From the NCBI GenBank assembly GCA_026025075.1, contig JAPEUI010000010.1, positions 186,001-250,000 of the forward strand: 64,000 bases of DNA. The letters run 5' to 3'. Under the pieces are notes generated by a model. The model had not been told where the DNA came from. It saw nothing but the letters and a program-made list of their open reading frames with translations, and did no database searches. Origin of the DNA: Vezdaea acicularis (taxonomy: Eukaryota). Both the position numbers and the translations under genes were made by a program. Numbering within the stretch: the first letter of the stretch is position 1; each line of letters begins with the position of its first letter. Below, piece after piece: positions 22,489 to 62,936 of this stretch.

Positions 22489-24366
22489 CTATATTATGTA
22501 CAGAAACCGGGGAGATTCATCCCCTAACTCTGCGATACGCTCTTCGGATAAGCCGGCCGTCTTATAGTCCTCTTTACCCTCCTTACGATCTTGGTTAAGC
22601 TTATTGAGCCAGTACTATAAAGGAGTCTGTTAATATTCCAGCTGCAAAAGGGCGCATTGCGTCCCATTACTTACCCATATGAAGCCATAGATGCAAATAG
22701 CAAAACCTACCATAGAAAGGGAGACGGCATGTCCTTTCACATAACGAGGCGCATCTGTATCAGGATACAACTGTTCCACCTTCATTAGTACTGTACCCAA
22801 GTAACGGCGTTCAGTAAGTATCAGGAGTCTTACAAATGGGGCCATGACGCCTGAGCTATTTCCGATAGTCAATTGAAGTCCCTGGACTCAATGTTCAACA
22901 AGCTTGATCTTTAGCAAGATGCTCTCTTGCTTACCATTGCGGTCGTCCTCTTTCCATACCGAGGGCTGTTGTTTGGTACCCATGCTTCTGGTAGTCCAAC
23001 TGCGACATATAACCCACAAGCTAGACGTCAAGTAAGTGGTCAGGCATTGTTGCTGGTACTTTGAATAGGTGGACCTACCAACCAAGCAGCAGCCAAAATA
23101 ATGTACGCCACTCGACGAGCTGGATATCAATAGTCCATACCCAATCACAGAAATCGAACCGAATATCACACAGTATAATCCTCTCATCTGGCGTTTATCC
23201 GATATATATGAAACGGCCATGTACGTTATCGCACCCAGCGCATAACATGGTACAGTCAATGCCTGGGCCTGAGCCGTGGACCACTTTCCCAATCCCTTGA
23301 TGATCGTCGGAAGGAATGTGCTAAAACCATAAAGCATGGTATCGACGCCAAATTGCGCAAGGCAGAAAATGATGATTTTCCAGTCCAGAAATGCTTTCCT
23401 AACGTCGTACCAGTGAAACTCCTGAGCTGATGCAGTCTGACCAATCTGGCGATTTCGCCTCTTTATCATCAACAGCTTTTCTTCCTCACTAAGATACTTA
23501 GCGGACTGGGGGGAATCTGCAAGGAGGAACCATGTCGCGACACCGACGACAAACGTAGGCATGCCCTCGATAATGAAAATCCACCTCCAGGCTCTGAGCC
23601 CCGCTTTACCATCCAGATAACTAATTCCATAGGCCAAAAGCCCGCCAAAAGCGCCAGCAAGAGCGGCACTTACGAACAGATATCCAATACGCAAGGCCAA
23701 CTCTCTTCTTGTGTAGAAGAGCGTCAGGTACACCGCCATACCCGGGTATAGGCCACTCTCGACAAGACCCAGGAGTAGTCTACATGCGATGAGACTGCCA
23801 TAGCTATGCACGAGCCCGGTGAGCGTAGCAATAATCCCCCATGAGGTTGCTATGAAGGATATGTAACGCGAAGGTGTAAATTTCTTGAGCACAAGATTGG
23901 AAGGGACTTCGAATGTCTTATGGACAACGATAATTTTAGTATAACTCCTCTTCCGAATGACCTGAGAGATTCAGACTCACCACATAAGTCACGAAGAGAA
24001 GAGAAACAGCAACCTGACATCTAATTAGCCCTCCTTGATTATTTGCTTGTCAGACTTCCTCACCAAATACTGATTCCCTGTCAGACCCAGATCCTTCTGT
24101 AGTCCATATAATTTTGCATTTCCAATATTGACTCGATCCAAAAAGCTTAGCAGGTACAGCAACATAACCATGGGCACAATATGCAGGTCTAACTTCCTGA
24201 CCAGCTTCTTCTCTGCAACATGATCTATCTCCAAGTCCAATGCGCCCTCGTAGCCCATCCCTGGCCCTTGCTTCGTCGTGACAGAAAGGGGGTCTCCGCC
24301 ATGGTCGATATCACTGCTGCGGCGGTATTTGCTGGTGGCCTTTTCATCGTCATGGAATTGGTCCAT
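22489..24366 (-). CDS. MFS transporter of the anion:cation symporter family (Tna1/Dal5-like), multi-intron
   Basis: EKKLVRKLDLHIVP..LYLLSFLDRVNIGNA, RLLLGLVESG, FYTRRELALR, WRWIFIIEG and C-terminal ELGDESPRFLY. Confidence 0.9.
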
Positions 24367-24851
24367 GTTGAGAGCGCAATGCGCAATTGATTGGGAACGT
24401 AGGAAAGATGACGATGGTCTAAATCTACAATTTAATAACGGCTAGCTGGGGGATCAACATGCTAGTCCCCGCTGGATGACGATTGGCCACCATCGTATTC
24501 GGAATGCCACTAGGTGGGGTATTTGAAGCATCATGCGGCATAGTAGGCCTTGTTGCGTAACCTTCTCTCTGAACGGGGATCTGTCGTCGCACATGCTGGT
24601 ACTGGGCATGCGATGCTGCATCCTTAACGATTGTGATAACGTGGCTGCGTCAGTGGCTTGCGCAAGGCGCAAAGAAAGTTTAGCGTGTGCGGGTGGATAA
24701 GCTGGTATTGATAACGTAGCCGAGGGGGAGGGGACGGCGATCCTGGTCAAGTATGGTCAAATAGCCTGAATCTACCGTAGTACAAATGATTGATATCACG
24801 TTGACTAACTTTACAACTAAACATTGTAATAATAGCCAATGAAAATACCAC

Positions 24852-27118
24852 TCAAAATTGGGAACCTCTCCACATGAACTTGCACCCGCCTTGGGAGTAT
24901 GTGTAGCACATCTCTTGCAAGTCTTCTTGTAGTCCCGAAGGACCAGCACAGAACACTCCAGAGGTCCGGGCTCCATGAATACGGCGGAGGGACATGAATA
25001 CAGCATTCCAGTCAGGGCGGCGGTAGGTCACTGGTGCACTCCAGCTATCGAAATCGGATTGATGCTGGTAGGCTATCGATTGGGCCATAAGATTGCGTCC
25101 AGTCATATACTAAGAAGGCATCCTAATGCTTGAGTGTCGCATCCTGGAAGAACGTAGGAAGGTATTGACTTACGATGTGCATCTCGATGTGGCGATCGAT
25201 ATCTTGAACTTCAAGAGCCATCAGCAAACACCTAAACCACTCAAAGGAGCTAAAATCCTTGCAGATCCAGAAGAAGTAAGCTTTACGCAGGCAAGTCTCC
25301 GTTCGCGGAGAACTCAGGCGATAATATATGTCTTTCAAAATGGATGCGAAATGCAGAGCACCTGATCCTGCGCCAACGAGGATCACGACTTCATAATTGA
25401 ATATCTCTGCTGCTGCGCTTCCGAAGGGTCCATCTATGTAGAGAACCGGGAATTGCCGTCGAATCACAGGATCGAACTCAGCGTTACCCATATCCTCATC
25501 TACTGCAATGACTTCAGACATCGTCCGTAAGTCGAGCTCGTCAATGTTGCATCCCAAGGTCTTAGCGACCTCAATTGTGAAGTGATCGATGCAGAGGATA
25601 TGGATTGAAAGGTAATCCTCTTCGGACGCACTTGTTAATATTAGTTTACGAAAGTAAAAAGTTGAGACCTCCGGACAGCAGAGCATGATATGCTAAATCA
25701 GAAGATTATCAGTATAGTTGGAACCGTAGGAGAGCTTGAACTTAAAGATTGGGCATACTTGTCCAGCTTTCACGTTGTAGCTTCCCTTCTTCAGCTGAAT
25801 CTCGATGATCTTGCTTGGATGCTGCACAATCTTTGTGATCAATATTCCGCGCCTAGTGCGCCATGTGCTGGCGATTTGCTCAGTGAGGAATAGGGCGAAG
25901 GAGGGCACCCAAATGTTCCAAAAACTGAAGCCACGAGTATGGCGATAAGACGCGTGCACAGCCAAGTTGACGAACGCAACTAACCCAAGGCTGCCGTAGA
26001 AAGTAGGGGCTAGCAAAGGTGCCCGATAACGTGTTGCTACGCTCATAGCCATCAATCCCGCCATGAGCAGTAAGACATGACCACTCAAAGAAGCCTTGTT
26101 GGTGAAACATATCTTCAGCCAGCCAGAAAAGCCTAAGCTATTAACAGCTACTACTCGTGCAAAATTGGCGTAATGAGAGGTTGTGTGTACCGCAATGAGA
26201 CTCGCAATTGTCCATGTAAAGACTGAAGGAAAGCTGGGTTACTTCTGGGCCCTCCTTGAACAAGCGTCAAAGCACTCACGGGTCGACACTTGAAAAAAGG
26301 GATCTAAGCAAGAGAGTGAGCTCTGGTAAACAACAATTCAGAATAGATTACAAACCTATCGAGAGAAATCGTGGGTAAATTTGCCGTCTTGAGAAGCGAG
26401 AAAGCAGTGCCAGGAGGTTCTGACAAAGAGCTACGCATTGATTAGCAAGACGTTTAGAAGCAGAATCCTTAGACCACCTCGTACGTATTAGTATGAAAGA
26501 GAAATTGATGATAATAGCCCACGCAGAGGCGTCTGCCGTAACGTATGACAGGCCTAGAACTAGTCTGACTGCAGAATGACGAGTCTGTGGTTTATATAAG
26601 GTTATCCGTTGGCCGCATTGTCGGGTCCATACGTTGATACAATGACCTCAGGACTATAGACGGGCTCTTCGGGGGTTATAAGAATTTTAAGCGCATACCA
26701 TTCTCTCGAAGTATGAATAGCAAATTAGAAAGAGCAACAGCTGCGTGACAACAAACAAGAATCTATAAGTACTATTCTTAGAGACCTATGTTGGCATGAT
26801 GATTGGTTCGATTTACCTCTTGTTCAACAATAGCCTGCGAAGGCTGTATAATGTCAGTTTACATAGGAAATCGATTTGCCCGTGGCATTATGGGTTTGCT
26901 GAAGTATTGGATTCAAAGTCCGCCGCTCCAATTCCAAGCAATGAAATCAAACATGCTTACCGTCGGATAGACTTTACCAACTTTGAAGTCGGTCTCCGGG
27001 TCTCTCCAATTATCTCTTCAGAGATGAGTAGACGGGCCAACAAGGACCATTGGGTCAAGTTTTGCTTCTCTATGTTCATAGCAATATCTGGAGGCTCAAT
27101 TCTCTCCATGGCATCCAT
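24852..27118 (-). CDS. Highly divergent NoxB-like NADPH oxidase homologue, ~560 aa. Exons 27118-26961, 26843(or 26834)-26817, 26762-26699, 26584-26485, 26430-26356, 26303-26280, 26222-25759, 25692-25174, 25109-24852
   Basis: Eight GT-AG introns give a stop-free frame that follows NoxB order: QWSLLARLLISEE N-terminus, ILIPLCQN, VHTTSHYANF, IVQHPS..EIQ..AGQ, LTSASEEDY, YIDGPFGS, FFWICKDFSSFEWF, RPDW, VFCAGP. Confidence 0.8.
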
Positions 27119-27724
27119 GGCAAAATCTTGGTCGCCAGGTGCTAACGCAGTGAGACGTGGCTGTCGCCGTAGCTGTGTCTTGAGTAGAAAGGAAGGAGCG
27201 ATAGATTCCTCTCTAGCTCTAGCTAATCTACCTTCCACTTGCGCAGAGGTAAATTGGGCCGCCAAGAACGTGTGCAGGCTAGGTAACCGTTATGGGCGCC
27301 GTGCAAAATTGATCATTCCCTGTTCGTTTTTTTATCACTGTACGAGATGGAATAAGATGGGAAATTGAGAAGCCATGCATTCAATTCGCCACTAACGCGC
27401 GAGCCTTATTCGTCCACCGGTATGCATCATCAGTTGAATAATGGAAAATCAGAACACCCATTCTGAACTGTATAAGTAAGGAAATCCCCGGCTTCTCCCA
27501 CCATGGTCAAGAGACAGACGTAGGTGGATGCATAAATTTCCATCATGCCACAAACCCTGCCCCGCCCTCACAGAATTGATTAGCAACGCCGAATAGAACT
27601 AGTCATCACGGTCTGCAGACAGCTTGCTGGCATATCATAGCAAAAGCCAGACCCAGAAGTCGACGTCACGTCGGGTAGCAGCGGAAACGTATTCTCCTGA
27701 GGCGTCGGACCTGAATAAAAACTC

Positions 27725-28590
<866 letters not shown>

Positions 28591-29295
28591 CTTAGAATAT
28601 GTAGTTTGAGTTGTCTTGGAATGAGTATCCTTGAGAGGGGAGTAAAGTCTTAGAGGAGGCTTTGCAGCGTCTATGAAGCGGGCGATCTTGGAGTTAGTCA
28701 GACGGATAGCGAGAGGCAAAACTTGACACACTTGACAGATTTTAAAGGCTACTGACCAATATGGAAGTGGGAGAACACTGTGTGCAATGAGGGTGGTTAC
28801 TCAGCCCTGCTGTGTTGACAGTGAGGCAAGATGTCGTAGGCGGTTAGTGAGGGAAGGAGAAAGAATCTCGCTCAACACTCAGGCTGTAGCAGCTGAATAG
28901 GCGCTAGACTCCGACTACGCCACCACTTCGGAACTCAGTACCAACACACGTTGAGCTATTCTACAAAGTTTTTCTACTAGGTACCAACTGTAACCAAGTG
29001 ACCATCGTGCACAATTGTATGACTCATTCAAAGGCCTGCCTTTAATATAAATTTCAAATGTTCAGTCCCATCCGGATGTACCCACCAATCATCCATAATC
29101 CCGCTTATCCTTTATGACTTTGATGACAGCAGATTCTGGGCTGGTTGTCGCATGAAAGAGGTTCCTGATTGTGGTATATTTACAGCCCGACCCATAAGTC
29201 ATCATCTCATTTCAGCAAACCATGCAGCAAAGTCGCATGAACCGGACGAACATGTCTGGACTAGCAGTACACCTTGCTGCCCCGACCTTCTATAG

Positions 29296-30765
29296 CTATA
29301 CAAACGCCTGAATGCCGGTGATTGAGCGCCCTAATATTAGACCTACGATTCGACACGCAAGAGTTACTATTGTGAGAGGCCAAAAGGTAGTTAGGCACTG
29401 AAAGGGGAGACTCACTGTGGATATCACTCTGCCCCTCGTACGTCTGCGTCACGAAGAGGTTTGCAACGTGTCTGCCAATTCCGTATTCATCACTTACAGC
29501 GTTTCCCCCAAAGATCTCTTGGAGACTTTGAATGACTTTAGCAGTTTTCCACTTCGGATTTAAGGGCGCTGATGCATACCGCCTTGCATTGATTAATGCC
29601 ATGTCACAATTACGTCTCTTGATCATTGATATCATTTCTGGAGCAGCGTCTCCTTTCTCCTTGAGCCTCCCAACTTGCGTAGCAGCTAGGATGCCATAGG
29701 CAGCATCGGTAACTGCATCAGCAAGTTTCTTTTGTACTAGCTGGTATTTTGCAATAGGGTTCCGCTTAAACTGTTTGCGTTCCAGTGCGTAAGTCCTTGC
29801 CCTGTCGATACAATCCTCCAGCGCTCCTATTGTACCCCAGGCGATACCGTAGCGGGCCGAGTTAAGGCAGCTGAAAGGCCCCCGAAGTCCTTCAACATCT
29901 GGAAACATGTTCTCTTCTGGCACTGGGCACTCATCAAGCTGGATCATTCCAGTGATAGATGCTCTCAGACCGTTTTTGTTCTTGATTGGGGGTGTTTCGA
30001 AGGTACCAGGTGGACAAGTAGACCTCTCGATAAGGAATCCTCTAATCTTGCCACTACTTTCTAGTTTTGCCCATACCATTGCTACATCTGCAATAGGAGA
30101 GTTTGTGATCCATGTCTTTGATCCAGATAATGAAAAGCATCCCTTTTTTGAGGGATGGGGCTTCGCAATAGTCTCTAGTGAGCCCGGATCAGAGCCATGG
30201 TTTGGCTCTGTGAGTCCGAAACATCCTAGAATTTTGCCCTTCGCCATGCCAGGCAGAAATCTGTCCTTCTGTTCCTGAGTCCCAAATTCCTCAATGCCGC
30301 CCATAACTAAAGAGCTCTGCACGGACATTCCTGACCGATATCCGGAGTCAACTCGCTCGACCTCTCTTGTAATTAAGCCAGAAGCAACACTACCAACACC
30401 AGCGCAACCATATCCTTGGATTGTAGCCCCGAGCAATCCCAGTTCACCCATTTCCTCTAAGATTTTCTTATCATAATTCTCCGTCCGATAAGCCTCTGAA
30501 TAGGACGTATGGTCAATCAGTTACGATATGCAACGGGAAAAGGGCGCGGCTATTCCCTACCAAGAACACGCGGAAGCATCTGCTCCTGGCAGTATGCTCG
30601 CGCAGTTTCTTTAATTGCCAATTCTTCTTCGGTGAACAAGAACGTAGAGCCTAATGGATCTTCCCAATTGAAAGAGCCTACAGATGCATGACGTCTCGAG
30701 ATACTATGGAGGCGACCAGCGGACACGAGGGGCTTGCGCAGACTCCTAATAATAACTTGATGCAT
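29296..30765 (-). CDS. Mitochondrial glutaryl-CoA dehydrogenase (acyl-CoA dehydrogenase family), 3 introns
   Basis: FNWEDPL, VERVDSGYRS, GCFGLTEPNHGSDP, KTWITNSP, CLNSARYGIAWG, TYEGQSDIH and LILGRSITGIQAF. Confidence 0.93.
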
Positions 30766-43329: not shown

Positions 43330-46300
43330 ATGTTCACATTTACGCCCCTACTCGGGGCCCTCTCCGACTCTCCGGCTTCACAGTCGCTGCTGGAGCTGGA
43401 CGGAGGGCTGAAGATACTCATTGATGTGGGCTGGGATGAGACTTTTGATGTCAAGAAGCTAGAACAACTAGAGAGGTAAGATTGCTAGGACTGTTCTGAC
43501 CAGCAATCAGTCAGGCCTACGGGTCAACCCTGTCCCTTACTTGCATTCGATTTGTCGATATATACATCAAGTCTTGTTTCTCGTACGATCAAGACGCCCT
43601 CACAAACGCATGCAATTGCTTCATGCCTATATATGATACAGCTATTGATTTCGCTCGAATGTAGGCAAATACCCACTCTGTCGGCTGTCCTCCTTACCCA
43701 TGCGACTATCTCTCACATCGGCGCGTTTGCCCACTGCTGCAAACACTTCCCCCTCTTCACTCGAATCCCGATATTTGCCACGACCCCGGTTGCATCGCTA
43801 GGCCGAACTCTTCTACAGGACCTATACAACTCGACTCCACTCGCATCGACAATTCTCTCATCGTCCTCCTCGTCCGAGACTTCATACGCTTACACGAATA
43901 CGAGCGGAGAATCATCAAACATCTTGCTGCAACCGCCGACAGACGAGGAGATTGCTGGCTACTTTTCACTCATCCATCCCTTAAAATATTCTCAGCCGCA
44001 TCAGCCCCTCTCGGTACCATCGGCGTCGCCCGATGGCCTCACCATCACCGCTTACAATGCCGGGCACACCCTTGGCGGAACCATCTGGCATATTCAACAC
44101 GGCCTTGAATCCATTGTTTATGCCGTAGATTGGAATCAGGCTCGTGACCATGTTCTCGCAAGTGCGGCTTGGCTCGGTGGAACCGGGGCAGGAGGGACGG
44201 ACGTGATTGAGCAGCTACGCAAGCCTACGGCTCTTATATGCAGCAGTCGAGGCGCGGAGCAGATTGCTTTGCCCGGTGGGAGGATCAAGCGTGATGAGAT
44301 CTTGCTTGATACCATCCGGTCTACGGTCGCCAACGGCGGGATAGTCCTTATACCAACCGACTCCAGTGCGAGAGTCTTGGAGCTTGCCTATGTACTTGAA
44401 CGTGCTTGGAGAGAGGCTGCAGCAGATCCGACTTCGAGCAACCCGCTGAAAGGAGCAAAGCTTTATCTTGCGAGCAAGAATATCGGCGCAACGATGCGAT
44501 ATGCTAGGAGCATGATCGAGTGGATGGACGAGGGGATGGAAGAGGAGATTCAAGGGGACCCAAGCCAAAACCGTTCTCGGGACAAAGCACAAAAAGACTC
44601 TCAGACCTCAGGAAAAGCAGGGGCACCTTTCGACTTCAAATACCTAAGACTTATTGAACGGAAAAAGCAGGTCGAACGCCTCCTCGATCGTGCCGCCTTG
44701 AGCAGGGGATCAGGGCCTGGTCGTGTGATCCTAGCAAGTGATAGCACTCTTGAATGGGGCTTTTCACGCGAGATCCTACGGCGGATTGCAGTGGATGACC
44801 ATAACACCATCGTCCTGACAGAGTCTCTTACCATTTCTAGCGACAGCGAAGAACACCATCGGTCCACCATCGGGCAAGACTTATGGGGGCTGTGGGCGAA
44901 TAAATCAGCTAATGTACAAAACGCAATCATGTCAGCCAGTGCGAACCGTGTGCCGGGAGGAGGTGCGCTACTTCAGGTTAGAGACGTCAGTCCAGCTCCG
45001 CTGGCTGAGAATGAGCTGTACAAGTATCAGCAGTACCTTGCAACCCAACGCAAGTTACAAGACACGCTTCGAGCTGGTGATGGTGCCGCCATTACCACCG
45101 CGGACGTGGCCGACGATATATCATCCGCCTCATCGAGCTCTTCCGAAGATTCAGACTCCGAGCATCAAGGAAAGGCACTGAATGTTTCCATGTCATTAGC
45201 TCACTCGAACCGCCACAAACTTGGTCTGAGCAACAAGGACCTAGGTGTAATGGTGCTCATCAAAGGGGAGGGCGTCTATGATTTCGATGTTCGGGGGAAG
45301 AGAGGCCGAGAAAGGGTTTTCCCTTACGTGGCCAAAAGAAAACGTGTGGACGACTACGGAGAGATGATCCGCCCGGAAGAATACCTGAGAGCCGAGGAAC
45401 GCGAGGACTTGGATGGCCCAGCTGAGGCTCGTGCATTGGGAAATACAGAGTCAAGTGGTTCACTTGGCCAGAAGCGCCGATGGAATGAGATGCTCCCTCA
45501 AGGAGGAAGGCGTTTATCAAACGGAACAGCCAAGCGGCGGAGAACCAATGGGAAGGTCGGTGTCAACAGAGACGCCAAAACTCGAGCCAATGGTCATGAT
45601 CGCCAACAGGATGAATCAGATGACGAATCATCAGAGGGCTCTGATGCTGAGGCTGAAGATCCAGTGACGACAGGGCCCAGCAAGGCTGTGTTCTCAACAT
45701 CAACGATAGATTTGAAGCTCGGCATTGCCTTTGTGGACTTTGCCGGTCTTCATGATAAGCGGAGTCTTCAAACCTTGATACCTCTGATCCACCCACGCAA
45801 AGTTATCCTGGTTGGAGGAATGAAGCAGGAGACTATGTCCCTTGCAGCGGACTGCCGAAAGGTATTCGCTGGTAGCGGAGAAAGCTCGAAGTCTGGCAGC
45901 GCTGTCGACGTTTTCACCCCGACGATTGGGAGGAGTGTGGACGCCAGTGTCGACACCAACGCCTGGGCGATCAATCTCAGCGAGTCTCTACTGAAGCGTC
46001 TCCAATGGCAGAAGGTTAAAGGCCTTGGAGTGGTACACCTCATTGGTCGGCTTGCTCTCTCAAGAATAGAAAACTTCCCCAACGACAACTTTGAGATGAA
46101 CAAGAAGCAGAAGCTACTAGAAGACGTCAAGACGGACTCCAAGAAACAGTCCACTACGACAAAGCAAGACGTTTTTCTTGCAGGACCTCCAGTTCTAGAC
46201 GTGATCCCAGCAAATAACGCCGCATCAACTCGGTCAATGTCCCGGCCTCTCCATGTTGGGGATTTGCGTCTCGCTGATCTGCGGCGGACACTTCAGAACT

Positions 46301-46503
46301 CTGGTCACGTAGCCGAATTCAGAGGCGAAGGAACTTTGCTTGTCGATGGTGTTGTCGCTGTTCGGAAGTCGGGGACTGGCAGAGTAGAAATCGAAGGGGG
46401 AGGTCTTAGAGCGGCAGAGGGAGGAAGTTCCAGGAATCGCGAGGGAACCTTCTTCGCTGTTCGGAACAAGATCTATGAAGGATTGGCGGTCGTCAATGGA
46501 TGA
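43330..46503 (+). CDS. CFT2: Cleavage and polyadenylation factor Cft2/CPSF100. Intron ~43476-43664
   Basis: MFTFTPLLGA..LLELDGG..ILIDVGWD, LLTHATISHIGA, YNAGHTLGGTIW, YAVDWN, VDDYGEMI and AEFRGEGTL. Confidence 0.95.
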
Positions 46504-51983: not shown

Positions 51984-53817
51984 ATGACTACTATAGGAGA
52001 GACTAAGGGCGCTCCTGCCCATAGCGCATCCAAGCCGGAGAAGGGACCGGAGGCCTTTCCCTCGGCCCCGTATCCTGGCCTCATGGCAACGATTGTGGAT
52101 GACGATGAGCGTTTGCTTGCGCGCATTGGATATAGACAGGTAACGTTGGGAAGCGCATTAAGGCTAGAGGCTCTGCTAACATGTTCAAACAGGAACTACG
52201 TCGATCCTTTACGAAATGGACAACCGTCTCGTACGCCATCTCTATTCTTGGAGTCCTAGGCTCCGTGCCTGCGACCTTCAATGCTCCTCTGGCCGCTGGC
52301 GGCCCCGCAACAGCGGTTTGGTGTTGGTTTATAGGTTCTTTCATGGCGATGTGCATAGCGAGTTCAGGTAAATGTTTTCGCCTGAGAGGCTCTTTGATCC
52401 TTCCTCACTAACGAAAACATCTAAGTCGCGGAGTTGGTGTCTGCATATCCCACGGCGGGCGGCATGTATTTCGTCACAAAAAGTGTAGTTCCCGCGGAGC
52501 ATGTCCCAATATGGGCTTGGATTGTGGGGTGGTGCAATTTTTTGGGTCAGACGGCCGGAGTATCGAGTGTCGCATATACAGTATCGCAGATGATCCTTGC
52601 AGCCGCTTGCATGAACTCGACATTTGACGATGCTACCTCAACCTACTCATATACACCGTGAGTCGGGGGATAAAGCCCATCTTGAAAGCCGAGAGCACCG
52701 TTCACTAATCACGCGTCGGTATAGGACCCCTTTGCAGACGGTCCTCCTTTCCATCTTCCTCCTCATTCTCATGGGCATCATCTGCTCTCTCACCTCTCGC
52801 GCCCTGCATAAGATTATTATCTGGTTTGCTCCGATCAACGTGCTCGCCTCCGTGGGAATCTGCATCGCCTTGTTGTATCTCACGCCTCACAAGCAATCCG
52901 CAAGTTGGGTCTTTACTCACGTCACGGACGGTTCCGGCTGGGGCAGCCGTGGCTTCTCCTTTCTCCTTGGCTTCCTGTCCGTCGCATGGACGATGACCGA
53001 CTACGATGGCACCACCCACATGTCGGAGGAGACGCACGACGCCGCCATCCGTGGCCCACTGGCCATCCGCATGGCCGTCCTCGTCTCCGGCGTCGTCGGC
53101 TGGATGATCACCATCTCGCTCTGCTTCTGCATCTCCGACCTCGACTCCGTCCTCACCTCGCCCACCGGCCTCGCCGCCGCCCAGATCTTCCTCAACGCGG
53201 GCGGCCGCGCCGGCGGCTCCGCCATGTGGGCCTTTGTCATCCTCGTCCAGTTCTTCACCGGCTGCTCCGCCATGTTGGCCGACACGCGCATGGCCTACGC
53301 CTTCGCCCGCGACGGCGCCCTGCCCCTCTCCCCCCTCTGGAGCAAAGTCAACACGCACACGCACACGCCCGTCAACGCCGTCTGGCTCGTCGTCGCCTTC
53401 TCCGCCGCCCTCGACTGCATCGGAATCGGCAGCACCCAAACCGTCGTCGCCATCTTCAACGTGACCGCCCCGGCCCTCGACCTCTCCTACATCGCCGTCA
53501 TCGTCGCGCGCCTCGCCTACGCCTCGCGCGTCCGCTTCGTTGACGGGCCATACACCCTCGGCCGCTGGGGCAAGCCCGTCAACCTCGTCGCCATTTCCTG
53601 GGTCCTCTTCATCAGCGCCGTCCTCTTCTTCCCCACCGTCCGCCCCGTCTCCCCCAGCAACATGAACTACGGCATCGCCATCGCCGCCTTTATCGCCCTG
53701 TTTGCCGTCGGATGGTGGTGGGCCGGCGCCCGCAATTCTTATACAGGCCCCAGGACTAAGAATCTGCTCATCGAGATCCCAACGGCAGATGACTCGGCGC
53801 CTAGCGATGATGAGTAA
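51984..53817 (+). CDS. APC-superfamily amino-acid/polyamine permease (Uga4/Hnm1/Tpo5-like), 3 introns
   Basis: LARIGYRQ|ELRRSF, GGPATAVWCW, AELVSAYPTAGG, YDGTTHMSEET, TRMAYAFARDGALP and TPVNAVW. Confidence 0.92.
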
Positions 53818-54892: not shown

Positions 54893-57800
54893 TCACGAAA
54901 CAACCATCGCATCCACCGTGGCACTCAGCCCCAACCCCCTCGAACTTCCCCCAACCCAAACCCTCGCCCCCATTACCTCTTTCCAATCCTGCAACCCTAC
55001 ATCCCAGCGACTCAAATCCCTCCTCGTAAGGCCCGTCTCCCACACAGTAGACTCGCCCGGCAAAATACTCAACCGCTCGAAAGCGCGGAGTTGCAGAGCC
55101 GGATCGTCGGGCCCGCCGAGACTGATGTAGAGTTGTGCGACTTCCTCGCCTGGGAGAGAGCCGGTATTGCGGATGAGTGCGCGGACGGTGTAGAGTGTGT
55201 CGTAGAGGAGGGCGTTGCCGCCGGGAGTACCGCCTGCGGAGGGGATGGGTTGCGGGGTGGAGTCGTGTGCGTGGGGGGGGATGGAGGAAGAGGAGTCGAG
55301 TCCGCTTGGGAGGGAGGTGTTGTTGAGGTAGGGATAGATGTATGCTGGCACTTTTGTGAAGTTCGCGGGGAACTGGTACAAGCTCAGGTTTGCGCTGGCG
55401 TTTCCGTAAGTGGGTGCGGCGGTCGTCATACCGGGTGGTGAGGGGGGAGGGTAGGACGCGTTAGTCAGACGCGGGGAGATGGTCAGGTTGGAGTAGGCGA
55501 AGGTGGTGTAGGAGAGGCCGAAGCCGAACTCGTAGGCGGGCGTCTTGTTCGCGCGGTCGAAGGCGCGGTAGTCGATGAAGACGCCCTCTTCGAAGTTTGC
55601 CTGCGGGGGACCATTGCCGTTGTTGGGGAGGTAGAGGAGGTCGGAGCCGTAATCTTGGCGGCTGGTGCCGATCGTGAAGGGGAGTTTGCCGGCGGGGTTC
55701 TGGCGCCCGTAGAGCACGTCGGCGATGCTGTTTCCGGCTTGCTCGCCGGGTAGGCCGGCCCAGATGATGGCGGTGACGTTGGGGTTGTCCTTGAAGCTGT
55801 TGACGAGGACGGGGCCGACGGAGGAGATGATGACGATGGTGTTGTTGCACACGCTCGAGATGTTCTGGATCAAGACTTCGCCGCCATGCCACAGAGTCAG
55901 GTTCTGTCGGTCTCCTTCGTTGCCGTCCACACTGATATAGCCCTCGCCGCTATCTGCGCTGACAAAGACCAAAGCTACGCTGGCGCGGCTGGCGAGGGTG
56001 GCGATTTGCGAGCTGGCGTAGTTGTTCGTCACGCTCTCCACAGTGCCGCCTTGGGAGAGTACCTCGTTCTGGATTGCGGTCAAAGGAGTTACAAGGTAGG
56101 GGTAGTTGGCCGTTCCGCTTCCCCAGCCTTGACCTAGGGTGCCATTATCGCAGCCACGGTCGGGACAGCCGTTTGGACCATAGACATTGTCGCCCGCACC
56201 TTGACCAAAAACAGCGGTCAATTTCTCCTTGCCAAGGGGGAGCGCTGAGTTGTTATTCTTCAGGAGAACGGCGGCCTTGGCGCCAATCTCACGGATCAAG
56301 GAAGCGTGTTCCTGGCGCACATCAACGTGTTGGTTGATCAGCCCATAGCCGTACTTGGGCCCGCCGACGGGGTGGAGCGACCCGAAGGTATCGAGGGTCC
56401 AAGAGTCAAAGTTGATGGGAACTTGCGTCTTGTCGCGGCCGACTTTGTACCAGGCGGCCATGATCCGCGTCGCCATATCGTCGAGGCGCCACTCTGGGAC
56501 GGACCCATTCAGCACAGCGATGGTGAGGTTGGCGCCCCAGTATGACATCCCGGAGAAAAAACTCGAGTCGCCCGGCATGGTCATATCGAGGCCGGCAAGA
56601 GCACTGGAAACGCCAGAATGCTGCGCGGCCCAGTCGGACATGACGAACCCTTGAAAGTCAAGTTCATCTTTGAGGAGCTTATTCAGGGTGTATGAGTTTT
56701 GGCAGCCATAAGAGTTGTTGATTTGGTTATAGGAACACATTATCGAGCCAGTGCCAGCACGGACAGCGTCTGCGAAGGGCCTGGATTGACATTAGTCCTG
56801 TTTGCTTTGTAAAATACTGATCCACAAGCCTTCGCGCAATTGCGTAGAGCAGCCTCTGATTTATACGGGTGATGAGAGCTCGCCCACACAGCGAAAGCCT
56901 TTTCATGCAATGAGGGGGGCGCTCATCCGGTAGGAAGTTTCACGTAGTGTTCAAGGCTCCGTGTACAGGACTGCAAGAGCCGAGAAAAAGACTCACCAAA
57001 GATAAAGCTCATGCATAGTGCGATCATCAATATTGGACGATAAACTATCCGTGATGTTATACCCAAACCCCTCCGCCTCGGGCGCCTGGCGGAAGTGTTC
57101 CTGCTCGTTACCGATATAATGCTTCGAGCAGGCAATGACGCCCGCGTCTTGAATACCGCGCACGGTCTCTGCCATGGCAATGCCAGTCAAGACTGGATCA
57201 GGGCTAAAGCCCTCCCAGTTGCGGCCGCCGGCGGGAGATCTGCTGCGGTCAGCGCTGTTTGGTTCTTCCCCCCAACTTCGGTGTTACGCACCTTCCAAGA
57301 GGTCCAGACACAGGGCCCAGCTGAATATCAACGCCTTTGTCGCGGTGCTCGGAACCCATTGCGTTTCCGCGGCGATACATCAGGTCTCTCGACCACGTAG
57401 CAGCAACGGTCATGCCCGCCGGGAAAACCGAATTATAGTCCGCTGCAGCAACACCCCCAGATCAGCCCCTCCCACTTTCACTCAATCGACATTAAAGAAG
57501 CAAACTCACTATCTCGCACCCCCAAGGGCGAATCCTGCAGACATAGACTCCGAAAGTTCATCCGCGGTATCGCGCCGGTCTGCCCAACGCATCTCTCGCC
57601 TTCCCACCCGACGCCCGTCGTCAGGTTGACCTTTTCCAGCAGCGTCAGCTGGCTGACGAAGGCCCTCGCTTTCGCATAGGCGTCCGCCCAGTCGCCCGCG
57701 CCGGAGCCCCATGGTGAAGGGTAGAAGGGTGGAGAGGTCTGGTTCGAGTGCGCGCCTGCTTGGGCGTAGGCGGCGACGGCTTCGGGATAGGTCGTGTTGG

Positions 57801-60765: not shown

Positions 60766-62936
60766 TCACGTTGCGAGAAAGTCCCATCCGAACTTCTGGA
60801 TCACCGTCTCCCAATCCCATGACGATTCGTCACCCTTGTTCATCAGATCCCATACTGCTTCCACCACCTTTCTCGCCGGCTCAATGTTGCGAAAGTTCGA
60901 GTATCGCTTCAACGTACCAAGACATTTCTTGATCTCGGGCCGTTGCTCTTCCTTGAACGCAGAACAGCCGAGCAGGAACAGCGGCATCAACAAGATGCTC
61001 TGTGTCGATGCATCAGGCGACAGTTGTCTCAGATACTCTAGTCCTTCGTCGACAGCATCGATGATCTTTTTCGTTGGTGTTGATTTATGAACGGTCCGGT
61101 AGAGATAGATCCAGGTGCATTGTCGATATAGTTGAGCGGCTATGTAGCCTTCCGTACCAGGCTGCTGCACTGGTTGCCAATCCCTTATATAGGCATCTAA
61201 CACCATCGCGTCGCTCATCGTTTGCTCGTCCACGACCGGTTGAATGTTATTCTGGTATCGATATCTGATCTTGTCTCGTAGTCGGGTGATCTTTGAGATG
61301 TACGAAAATAGTCCGTCGAAGACACCCAACAGCGTGCCCGCGCCTGGCTGCACGATGAAAGCAGGCAAGGTGAAGTCCGAGGTCATATCCAGATCTTTGC
61401 GGCTCAGCGAGGTGATGGCGGATAGCATCCAGTGGAAGGCGAAAAACTCGTATATGAAGTTTGCAAAGTCGGCGTTTCCGATCTCACTCTTACTATCAAT
61501 CATAGCCTTGCACGCATCTAGATGCGGACGATATTCCCCTTCCTTCTCCCCGTTGCATATCGACTGAAGGACCAAGACGATCGTTGTCGCCACAATCGGA
61601 TCCTCGATAGGCTCATCACTGGCCCCATCCCGATGCCTCGCCAAGCTCGCATCATCCTTCAAGAGCTTGATGGCCCTATCCAGATGAAACATCCTCCGTT
61701 CTTCGATCGGCCCAGTGTTGTCGGAGCAATGTGCGGATGACAGGCATAAGATGGAGTGCATCAGCCCGGTGTGTCGAGTGGCCATGGGCAGTAGAAGGTT
61801 TTTGAATGGGTTGGAGTCGCCATAGCTGACCGACATGACTTCACTGACGCGTTCGATGAAGTGATCAAGAAGCTGCCGGTCCAGTTCCGTCTCCACGCCG
61901 TCGTAGAGAACGGACAGCTCGCGGGGCTGAGTTAACTGCCGAGCCATTCGCGCTACGAAAAGAAACCAGTCAGTCCCCGCGGAAAATATGTCGTGGTGAT
62001 CAATTGCAAGGCTACCTTCTTCTGCTTTCTGCCGCCCACTCTTCCAGACCTTTCTTTCCATGTAGCCTTCGCATTGGACAGCGTTTTTCTGACAGTTCAA
62101 GCCTAGGCATCGTCAGTGATCGGAACTACCGTACCCCATACAACCTCATGTCACACTCGACGCGAAGGGCGCTCACAGGCAGGCTTCGTCTCGTCGCACT
62201 TCTTCTTCCGTCTACGACACGTTTGACATCCCGTTTTCGATCGACCTTTCGTGACCTTGGACTGTGCGTCGGGTGATGGAAGTGGATGTTTGCGTGGTCG
62301 GCCTCGTGGCCTTTTGGGGTTGACGGGACCGGACGCTTCAATCGACTCGGGTATGGTGGCAGGCGAGTCCTTCGCATCATCATCATAATCCAGCTGGTCG
62401 GTCTCGTCCTCCTCTTTCACCCGATGATCCATCATCCGACTGCCATCTTGGGCTCCAGGCCCGGTCGGCGTAGACATTGGCGATGATCGTTCGGTCGATG
62501 GTGTGTGAATTGATGTCCTCAATCCGACTGACGATGGCCCAATCGAAAATGGGGACGATGCTTGAATCGAGTAAATCAGGTCCGGGGGCCTTAGTAGGAG
62601 TTCGAGGGCAGAGTTGATCAGTGTGGTGGGTGATTGGTGAGGCCAGTAATTCGGTCGCCGAGGTGGATCAATTTCCTCCGCATCCGAATCGTCCTGATCG
62701 ATATCGTTCAGGTCCTGGTGACGAGCGTGTTCGTCGTCACCTTCGGATGGTGAGGAGAGGATGGATTCACCCGAGTACCTTTCGGTGGTTCCTGATAATG
62801 GAGGCACCGGCGAGACGAGCAGCGGTTGGGTCCGATTTCCGACGGTCGGGTGGACGTCGTTTGCGGCGTAGGGCCGGTGGCCTGGAGGATCGAGAAAAGC
62901 AACGGGTGGATTGAGGGGCAATCCGTGGCTCGTCAT
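60766..62936 (-). CDS. Zn(II)2Cys6 transcription factor with an AT-hook and a Fungal_trans_2-type C-terminal domain, Acr-2-like
   Basis: KRPRGRPRKHP AT-hook, GRSKTGCQTCRRRKKKCDETKP|CLNCQKNAVQCEGY, NPFKNLLLPMA, LLMPLFLLGC and WDWE..I...GWDFLAT. Confidence 0.9.

Follow-up and report, generated by a model that had tools for sequence, protein, structure and literature searches.

The 64,000-nucleotide (nt) stretch of DNA of the lichen-type fungus Vezdaea acicularis analyzed here (contig JAPEUI010000010.1, positions 186,001 to 250,000, assembly GCA_026025075.1; hereafter the window) carries, on its minus strand at positions 24852–27118, a gene for NoxB, a fungal oxidase of reduced nicotinamide adenine dinucleotide phosphate (NADPH). 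Nine exons joined across eight GT-AG introns give 562 codons without a stop before the TGA at 24852. The gene is an orthologue of canonical NoxB with an intact frame, it has lost cofactor motifs and is accelerated in a gene-specific manner, and neutral decay is rejected. The reading that we favor, with some reserve, is that selection has retained this intact orthologue as a pseudo-oxidase; we therefore call it the candidate pseudo-NoxB. All exons, introns, and neighboring genes described below lie on the minus strand.

Exon structure of the gene

The gene model was compared with canonical NoxB genes from metagenome contigs. A total of 417 pattern-matching stretches yielded 294 relatives, from which 80 loci were kept, all 50–55% identical to exon 8. 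Intron sites in these loci were located by mapping a canonical protein, and the counts for each site refer to the loci that span it. All eight intron positions of the candidate coincide with introns of canonical NoxB genes. One locus, L020, has all eight introns in the same phases (2, 2, 0, 1, 1, 1, 0, and 0), together with both micro-exons. Exons 2 to 9 measure 27/64/100/75/24/464/519/258 nt in the candidate versus 27/70/100/63/24/494/525/276 nt in L020. From exon 3 onward, the differences are −6, 0, +12, 0, −30, −6, and −18 nt, each a multiple of three. The preliminary description of this DNA had proposed nine exons, eight GT-AG introns, two micro-exons, and a stop-free frame of about 560 residues, and this structure holds.

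The introns are 52–117 nt long. Exon 1 (26961–27118, 158 nt) begins with the first ATG of the open frame (27118–27116) and encodes the N-terminal cytosolic extension typical of NoxB. It ends at a GTAAGC donor and matches the NoxB profile described below from position 8. Intron 1 (26844–26960, 117 nt, phase 2) lies at canonical position ~W45 and is present in 8 of 65 canonical loci. An alternative junction set with a 36-nt exon (592 amino acids) was rejected, as it would need an impossible 19-nt intron; with that exon skipped, intron 1 measures 117 nt. Exon 2 (26817–26843) is a micro-exon of 27 nt that corresponds to the canonical MVNEGYRRL exon. L020, L037, L043, and L047 have this 27-nt exon as well, bounded by introns 45 and 54. 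It is followed by intron 2 (26763–26816, 54 nt, phase 2), which is shared by 41 of 65 loci.

Exon 3 (26699–26762, 64 nt; 70 nt in L020) encodes the first transmembrane segment (TM1). Intron 3 (26585–26698, 114 nt, phase 0; 10 of 66 loci) separates it from exon 4 (26485–26584, 100 nt, also 100 nt in L020), which encodes loop A and TM2 and includes the position of NOX2 Arg54, here Asp101. Intron 4 (26431–26484, 54 nt, phase 1; 8 of 67 loci) is in frame and stop-free, hence also readable as coding. When the 54-nt in-frame intron (GTACGA...GCTAAT...TAG) is removed, the sequence ..ILIPLCQNL.. is restored, compared with canonical ..ILFPVCRNL... Loop B is encoded by exon 5 (26356–26430, 75 nt; 63 nt in L020), which ends at intron 5 (26304–26355, 52 nt, phase 1; 8 of 69 loci). 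The second micro-exon, exon 6 (26280–26303, 24 nt), reads DPFFQVST in place of canonical DKNITFHK, with Ser148 at the position of NOX2 His101. The same 24-nt exon is present in L020, L044, L045, and L049. As both micro-exons are shared with canonical NoxB loci, L020 included, they are inherited features of the family and not artefacts of frame fitting.

Intron 6 (26223–26279, 57 nt, phase 1; 6 of 69 loci) precedes exon 7 (25759–26222, 464 nt), which encodes TM3–TM6 and the start of the dehydrogenase domain. This exon retains H162, H166, and H239, lacks an equivalent of NOX2 His209, and has a deletion of 9–10 residues in loop E. Intron 7 (25693–25758, 66 nt, phase 0) follows AGQ at a canonical site (23 of 79 loci). 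Exon 8 (25174–25692, 519 nt) encodes the flavin adenine dinucleotide (FAD) and NADPH sub-domains with the sequences RKLILTS, LCIDHFT, and GAGSGALHF. Intron 8 (25110–25173, 64 nt, phase 0) interrupts the canonical IHT|YLT site (39 of 80 loci). Exon 9 (24852–25109, 258 nt including the stop) encodes the end of the NADPH sub-domain, with FCAGP and the C-terminal ..RGSQF. The stop-to-stop frames 25123–25692 and 24852–25109, which cover exons 8 and 9, match Pfam NAD_binding_6 with E-values of 1.1e-13 and 6.4e-5, respectively.

Two donors, GTACGA and GTTTGT, are off consensus, and the 16 splice dinucleotides, each at a canonical site, are all intact. In the nearby glutaryl-CoA dehydrogenase gene, intron 1 (30496–30560, 65 nt) has the donor GTAGGG; therefore, genuine genes of this genome also have donors that depart from the consensus.

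When scored against a profile of 86 canonical NoxB proteins, the model reaches 447.7 bits over profile positions 8–570. Exons 1–6 alone score 33.5 bits against the same profile (E 9e-13), compared with 3.4 bits for the best of 200 shuffles. On the plus strand, a 199-residue stop-to-stop frame (26769–27368) runs antisense to exons 1–3 and the promoter region; it has no Pfam match and is probably spurious.

A public protein annotated in V. acicularis, P0355 (360 residues), is identical to the last 360 residues of our model and uses the same introns 7 and 8. It starts at an internal methionine in exon 7 and omits exons 1–6 (25759–27118 region), that is, the first 202 residues including TM1–TM3. 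Our model thus corrects a public gene model that lacks these residues. Proteins from two further assemblies, in one species cluster with P0355, have open frames with the same ends as our model. P0311 is identical at 186 of 187 residues of exon 8, the sole difference being in intron-derived sequence, and P0356 is identical at 76 of 78 residues of exon 9. P0311, P0355, and P0356 are the only near-identical proteins found.

Position among NoxB loci and relatives

Upstream of the candidate lies a gene of several exons for a ubiquitin-conjugating enzyme E2 (27725–28800; Pfam UQ_con, 1.4e-27 and 6.2e-9), and beyond it the glutaryl-CoA dehydrogenase gene (29261–30765), identified by a Pfam match and by mapping of P0357. 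Downstream lies a transporter gene of the major facilitator superfamily (MFS) (22888–24441; Pfam MFS_1). Of the 80 canonical NoxB loci, an E2 gene precedes NoxB on the same strand in 10, and an MFS homologue follows it in 9; several of these loci are near-identical contigs and are not independent. One locus (L014) has both neighbors, and L020 has the glutaryl-CoA dehydrogenase gene. No neighbor probe matched within the flanks of 61 of the 80 loci, and many of these flanks are short. In Glutinoglossum, the locus tag of NoxB is adjacent to that of the glutaryl-CoA dehydrogenase gene.

A tree of 30 rows (quick search, LG+G4) groups the candidate in a clade with NoxB proteins of Geoglossomycetes, with a support of 100 in the Shimodaira–Hasegawa-like approximate likelihood-ratio test. 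The tree places the gene inside NoxB; it comprises NoxB proteins and no NoxA or NoxC, and assignment to the subfamily relies on the names of the source sequences and on the N-terminal extension. The end branch of the candidate is 5.83 versus a median of 0.16, about 36-fold, although lengths of long branches are rough in a search of this kind. The branch of the neighboring glutaryl-CoA dehydrogenase, 0.15 versus a median of 0.12, is not accelerated. Because the ancestral neighbors are present and the gene branches inside NoxB with the expected relatives, it is a positional orthologue at the ancestral NoxB locus, the species' own NoxB and not an extra paralogue.

This result bears on the idea, raised in the preliminary description, that the gene is an extra NoxB-like copy acting as a dominant-negative competitor. 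In such a scenario, a canonical noxB would lie elsewhere in the genome and the dead copy would compete for NoxR, Pls1, or NoxD. Pseudo-enzymes commonly arise after a duplication, once one of the two copies is released; nothing more direct speaks for the scenario. A canonical Vezdaea NoxB is absent from the matches listed, which says little, as only 976 word-sharing candidates were scored. As the candidate is the positional orthologue, a dominant-negative function needs a separate canonical NoxB partner, which would have had to arise by an additional duplication to a new site. The candidate occupies the ancestral locus with both ancestral neighbors, the tree places it beside the species' relatives within NoxB, and no second NOX gene was found in the 64-kb window. 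We therefore regard an extra regulatory copy as improbable.

Database searches retrieved ordinary members of the family. The exon 8 matches among those listed are all of NoxB type, 48–55% identical, and come from NoxB of many classes. For exon 7, a search against 1.84 billion representatives gave 70 matches at E≤0.001, 7 at ≤1e-10, and none at ≤1e-30, with full-stretch identities of 26–39%; the best of these matches are 28–39% identical. The ESM Atlas returned ordinary NOX/ferric-reductase clusters only. Peptides specific to the window were also scanned against metagenomes; the 162 stretches that matched include no relative of the divergent form.

A few other public NoxB-like proteins are unusually divergent (P0122, P0124, P0128, P0129, and P0131), none of them related to this form. 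All four heme-histidine positions are retained in P0122, from the Taphrinomycotina yeast Savitreella phatthalungensis, and in P0128, P0129, and P0131; P0124, which starts inside TM3, retains the three that it covers.

Several classes of Pezizomycotina appear to share the gene order glutaryl-CoA dehydrogenase, ubiquitin E2, NoxB. Some public gene models are fused across it: a record from Pseudogymnoascus joins NoxB to UQ_con, and records from Bachmanniomyces, Gyalolechia, Seirophora, and Alternaria join UQ_con to the dehydrogenase. Vezdaea is listed as leotiomyceta incertae sedis in the NCBI taxonomy and, according to an excerpt of PMC12238968, has been placed in the redefined Lichinomycetes. 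Its species V. minima is available in axenic culture (JCM 39692; excerpt of PMC13616976). The closest named relatives among the dehydrogenase matches (Piccolia, Thelocarpon, Sclerophora, and Chaenotheca) are not among the NoxB matches listed, and Trichoglossum, Glutinoglossum, and Cirrosporium are. This gap may stem only from the way candidates were selected by shared words, or it may hint at a wider alteration or loss of NoxB in the clade.

Heme, FAD, and NADPH sites

Motifs were placed in register by a MAFFT alignment with 86 full-length canonical NoxB proteins and by aligning the model to human NOX2 chains with HMMER. Every motif change listed in the preliminary description is reproduced by these alignments, and its view of an intact gene in which inner-heme, FAD, and NADPH ligands are replaced is borne out. 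The model is 32–42% identical to the canonical proteins (mean 36%) and 38% identical to their consensus; the canonical proteins are on average 76.5% identical among themselves.

In NOX2, the heme ligands are His101, His115, His209, and His222, and the oxygen-reduction center at the outer heme is formed by Arg54, His115, and His119, Arg54Ser being non-functional (excerpt of PMC9568551). The residues H162, H166, and H239 of the model correspond to NOX2 H115, H119, and H222. Two of the four heme-ligating histidines are gone: the H101 position is Ser148 and the H209 position is a glycine or a gap. Thus, of the two histidines in TM3 and the two in TM5 that four-histidine ligation requires, only H162 and H239 remain. 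We take the lost pair to be that of the inner, cytosol-side heme. No replacement histidine was found in the cytosolic half of TM3 or TM5, and a new histidine, His198, is present at the outer end of TM4. The Arg54 position is an aspartate, Asp101. In addition, the conserved histidines of TM1 and TM2 in canonical NoxB are replaced.

The cytosolic domain is altered as well. The motif HPFTLTS, in which HPFT has a role in FAD binding, reads RKLILTS, and its H, P, and F are 100% invariant in the 86 canonical proteins. The motif (R)xxGDxT reads LCIDHFT. The NADPH loop GAGIGVTPF reads GAGSGALHF, with the three glycines kept and a histidine at the position of NOX2 Pro415. FFCGP is changed to FCAGP, and the C-terminal GKENF to RGSQF. 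Besides the loop E deletion, a stretch of 6–7 residues after YLTAK is missing. The C-terminal phenylalanine, the GP of FCAGP, and the sequences YIDGPFGSA, ASILK, and YFFW.C.D are kept.

These changes are embedded in a broad divergence. There are 258 columns conserved in at least 95% of the 86 canonical proteins; the model keeps 130 of them, and 128 (50%) are changed or deleted (7 deleted). Of 21 functional positions considered, 12 are changed (57%). By these counts, losses at cofactor sites are about as frequent as at conserved positions overall, as in a protein under general relaxation; the loss is general and not targeted. The "coordinated" loss of electron-transfer machinery claimed in the preliminary description is, on these counts, not demonstrable.

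The six hydrophobic segments of the model peak at the same places as in the canonical consensus. When scanned alone, the frame 25693–26238, which covers TM3–TM6 and most of the heme domain, has no Pfam match, Ferric_reduct included, at E up to 1. P0355 matches NAD_binding_6 (85.4 bits) and FAD_binding_8 (30.6 bits), both above the cut-offs. An AlphaFold2 model of P0355, the last 360 residues, with 32 relatives in the alignment, has a mean predicted local distance difference test score of 75.7 and a predicted template modeling (TM) score of 0.70. In a structural search, the model matches best to human NOX2 (E 3e-27, TM-score 0.62–0.66 on the query), the dehydrogenase domain of NOX5, and DUOX1.

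Could the protein still be a redox enzyme with unorthodox cofactors, for example a single-heme or differently ligated flavocytochrome? The retained heme pair that includes the NOX2 His115 position (H162 and H239), the retained His119 position (H166), the preserved GxGxG, GP, C-terminal phenylalanine, YIDGPFGSA, and ASILK elements, the two Pfam matches of P0355, and the new His198 are all compatible with such an enzyme. However, neither position of the second heme has a histidine or a nearby substitute, and HPFT is RKLI. In human NOX2, Pro415His disrupts GXGXGXXPF and abolishes superoxide production at a normal protein level (excerpt of PMC9674757), and this type of change alone would suffice. 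The aspartate at the Arg54 position points in the same direction as the non-functional Arg54Ser. We consider retained redox activity very improbable.

Decay, selection, and possible function

To compare the gene with neutral decay, a canonical coding sequence of 558 codons was evolved neutrally (kappa 2, uniform sites, without indels, 300 runs per level). At 70, 60, 55, 47, and 40% identity, the runs accumulated on average 8.2, 10.8, 12.1, 14.2, and 15.9 stops, respectively, and at each level 0 of 300 runs were stop-free. The replacements in the candidate are conservative. The mean BLOSUM62 score at replaced sites is −0.23 versus −0.79 in 200 runs that were neutral except for stops (standard deviation 0.075, maximum −0.60), and the fraction of replacements scoring at least 0 is 0.55 versus 0.42 (maximum 0.48). 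The alignment has 126 columns with 100% invariance, of which 82 are kept. Retention is uneven: in a comparison of column classes, 82 of 123 invariant columns are kept versus 47 of 128 columns with 95–99.9% conservation, about a twofold difference.

The codon score is +0.073 in frame, in exons 1–6 and exons 7–9 alike, versus −0.17 and −0.12 off frame. Other genes score +0.085 to +0.141, and introns and intergenic DNA are negative in all frames. Nonsynonymous divergence (dN) between the candidate and canonical genes is 0.61–0.63, compared with 0.12–0.19 among canonical genes.

Hallmarks of pseudogenes (stops, frameshifts, intron loss, and a signature of repeat-induced point mutation, RIP) are absent from the 562 codons. 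A RIP-mutated duplicate was rejected, since TpA/ApT (0.76), (CpA+TpG)/(ApC+GpT) (1.33), and the GC content (46%) are like those of neighboring genes. A processed pseudogene was rejected because eight introns are present.

Neutral decay is thus rejected for the bulk of the divergence. The open frame, in-frame indels, coding-frame codon signal, and conservative replacements make selection on the translated product during the divergence the best reading of the sequence, in agreement with the preliminary description, which preferred selection on a protein to decay. This conclusion concerns the history of the branch, not necessarily the present.

The gene may instead be a relic: NoxB activity would be dispensable in the lineage, and the gene would be drifting or just dead, with no visible disablement yet. 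The 128 of 258 near-invariant positions changed, the loss of cofactor sites at the background rate, the membrane-domain frame (exon 7 alone) that fails to match Ferric_reduct, the two off-consensus donors, and the truncated public gene model would all be expected of a relic. Yet 0 of 300 neutral runs remain stop-free even at 70% identity, every exon-length difference is in frame, and the 16 splice dinucleotides are kept at canonical sites. The replacements are conservative, and the coding-frame codon signal is like that of neighboring genes. Two further assemblies have open frames. What is left is a very recent death. We consider a relic unlikely, though less so than the extra copy or the redox enzyme considered above.

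Several points weigh against a pseudo-oxidase retained by selection. A recent death after a long, fast-evolving functional phase would look the same. Losses are no more frequent at cofactor positions than elsewhere among the conserved ones (12/21 versus 128/258), and such unenriched losses agree equally well with general relaxation and with a specific functional switch. Synonymous sites are saturated (proportion of synonymous differences >0.75 by Nei-Gojobori in all ten pairs), and omega on the branch is not estimable. The divergent form is present in one species only, which gives no dN/dS within the divergent lineage. Retention of hydrophobic residues in the membrane domain (86/117, 0.74) is within the simulated range (mean 0.66, maximum 0.78), and the observed BLOSUM62 values are somewhat favored by MAFFT, which optimizes the real alignment. 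The fold model of P0355 leans on an alignment dominated by canonical NoxB and is weak evidence of a retained fold. The public annotation covers the last 360 residues only. Finally, the scaffold role described below and the names of the partners are what we infer, and only that.

With these points in mind, we propose the following mechanism for a retained pseudo-oxidase. Three successive stations of the electron path would be broken: the NADPH loop, by a change of the P415H type; the FAD motif, by the change from HPFT to RKLI; and one heme, by the loss of both its histidines. On the strength of these substitutions, the protein is most likely unable to carry electrons from NADPH to oxygen, and hence would make no superoxide. 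With electron transfer most likely lost, and given a frame kept by selection, the protein would therefore be a pseudo-enzyme. It would retain the architecture of the family, with 562 residues, six predicted membrane helices, and a ferredoxin-reductase-like cytosolic domain. Selection would have kept the gene open, in frame, and protein-like while it evolved several times faster than its orthologues. The gene would be expressed, and its product would act without redox chemistry, most likely as a membrane scaffold for the usual NoxB partners (the tetraspanin Pls1, NoxR, and polarity proteins). The outer heme may still be held through H162 and H239. Tentatively, then, the only NoxB of this fungus may be a catalytically dead oxidase kept as a membrane scaffold, maybe with the single H162/H239 heme; we hold this specific form to be possible, and clearly less probable than a retained pseudo-oxidase as such.

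Three known systems serve for comparison. The candidate resembles canonical NoxB (Nox2) of Pezizomycotina in its full-length collinear homology, the eight intron sites of L020, the neighboring genes, the N-terminal extension, the six hydrophobic segments, the ferredoxin-reductase-like domain, and its place in a clade with Geoglossomycetes NoxB. Unlike canonical NoxB, to which it is 32–42% identical, it has replaced two of four heme histidines, HPFT, the proline of the NADPH loop, and the arginine of the Arg54 position, has lost the loop E residues and those after YLTAK, and has an exon 7 frame that Ferric_reduct does not match.

The second system is that of the X91+ variants of human NOX2 (gp91phox) in chronic granulomatous disease, in which, as far as the excerpts of the two NOX2 papers go, the same positions are altered: Pro415 to histidine exactly, and Arg54 to another residue. 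The variants Pro415His and Arg54Ser show that a protein altered in this way can be produced and assembled and still lack activity. In contrast to these single disease mutations under negative selection, the candidate has dozens of changes fixed in a wild species, with the frame kept.

The third system is that of pseudo-enzymes in general. Pseudokinases, pseudophosphatases, and iRhoms retain the fold and the gene, have lost catalytic or cofactor residues, and evolve faster than their active relatives. The candidate appears to follow this pattern, as it retains the gene and a NOX-like predicted fold, has lost cofactor residues, and is accelerated. As for precedents, among the matches listed for the literature on NADPH oxidase pseudo-enzymes and on lichen NoxB, titles and opening lines of abstracts mention no pseudo-enzyme of the NOX/ferric-reductase family. 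This is in line with the preliminary description, which knew of no described fungal pseudo-NOX.

Studies of fungal NoxB have dealt with the superoxide that it supplies for penetration structures and for the germination of ascospores (excerpts of PMC3572182 and PMC6589725). A structural role of NoxB is hard to test, as knock-outs remove protein and activity together. If the candidate is a retained pseudo-oxidase, nature would have provided a separation-of-function allele, and the NOX/ferric-reductase family its first candidate pseudo-enzyme. Were it also the only NoxB of the fungus and kept as a membrane scaffold, NoxB would have a structural role, in organizing Pls1, NoxR, and polarity proteins, that is separable from superoxide production. 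In addition, inactive members can go unnoticed when comparative genomics tallies the Nox genes present.

The GC content of the window is 0.45–0.49 at about 8–38 kb and steps to 0.51–0.65 at 39–64 kb. Fungal genes are present on both sides of the step; they include CPSF100 (43489–46503), an amino-acid permease (52615–53817), GH3 (54893–56791), and a transcription factor (60766–62112). The step has the appearance of compositional heterogeneity and not of a chimeric join.

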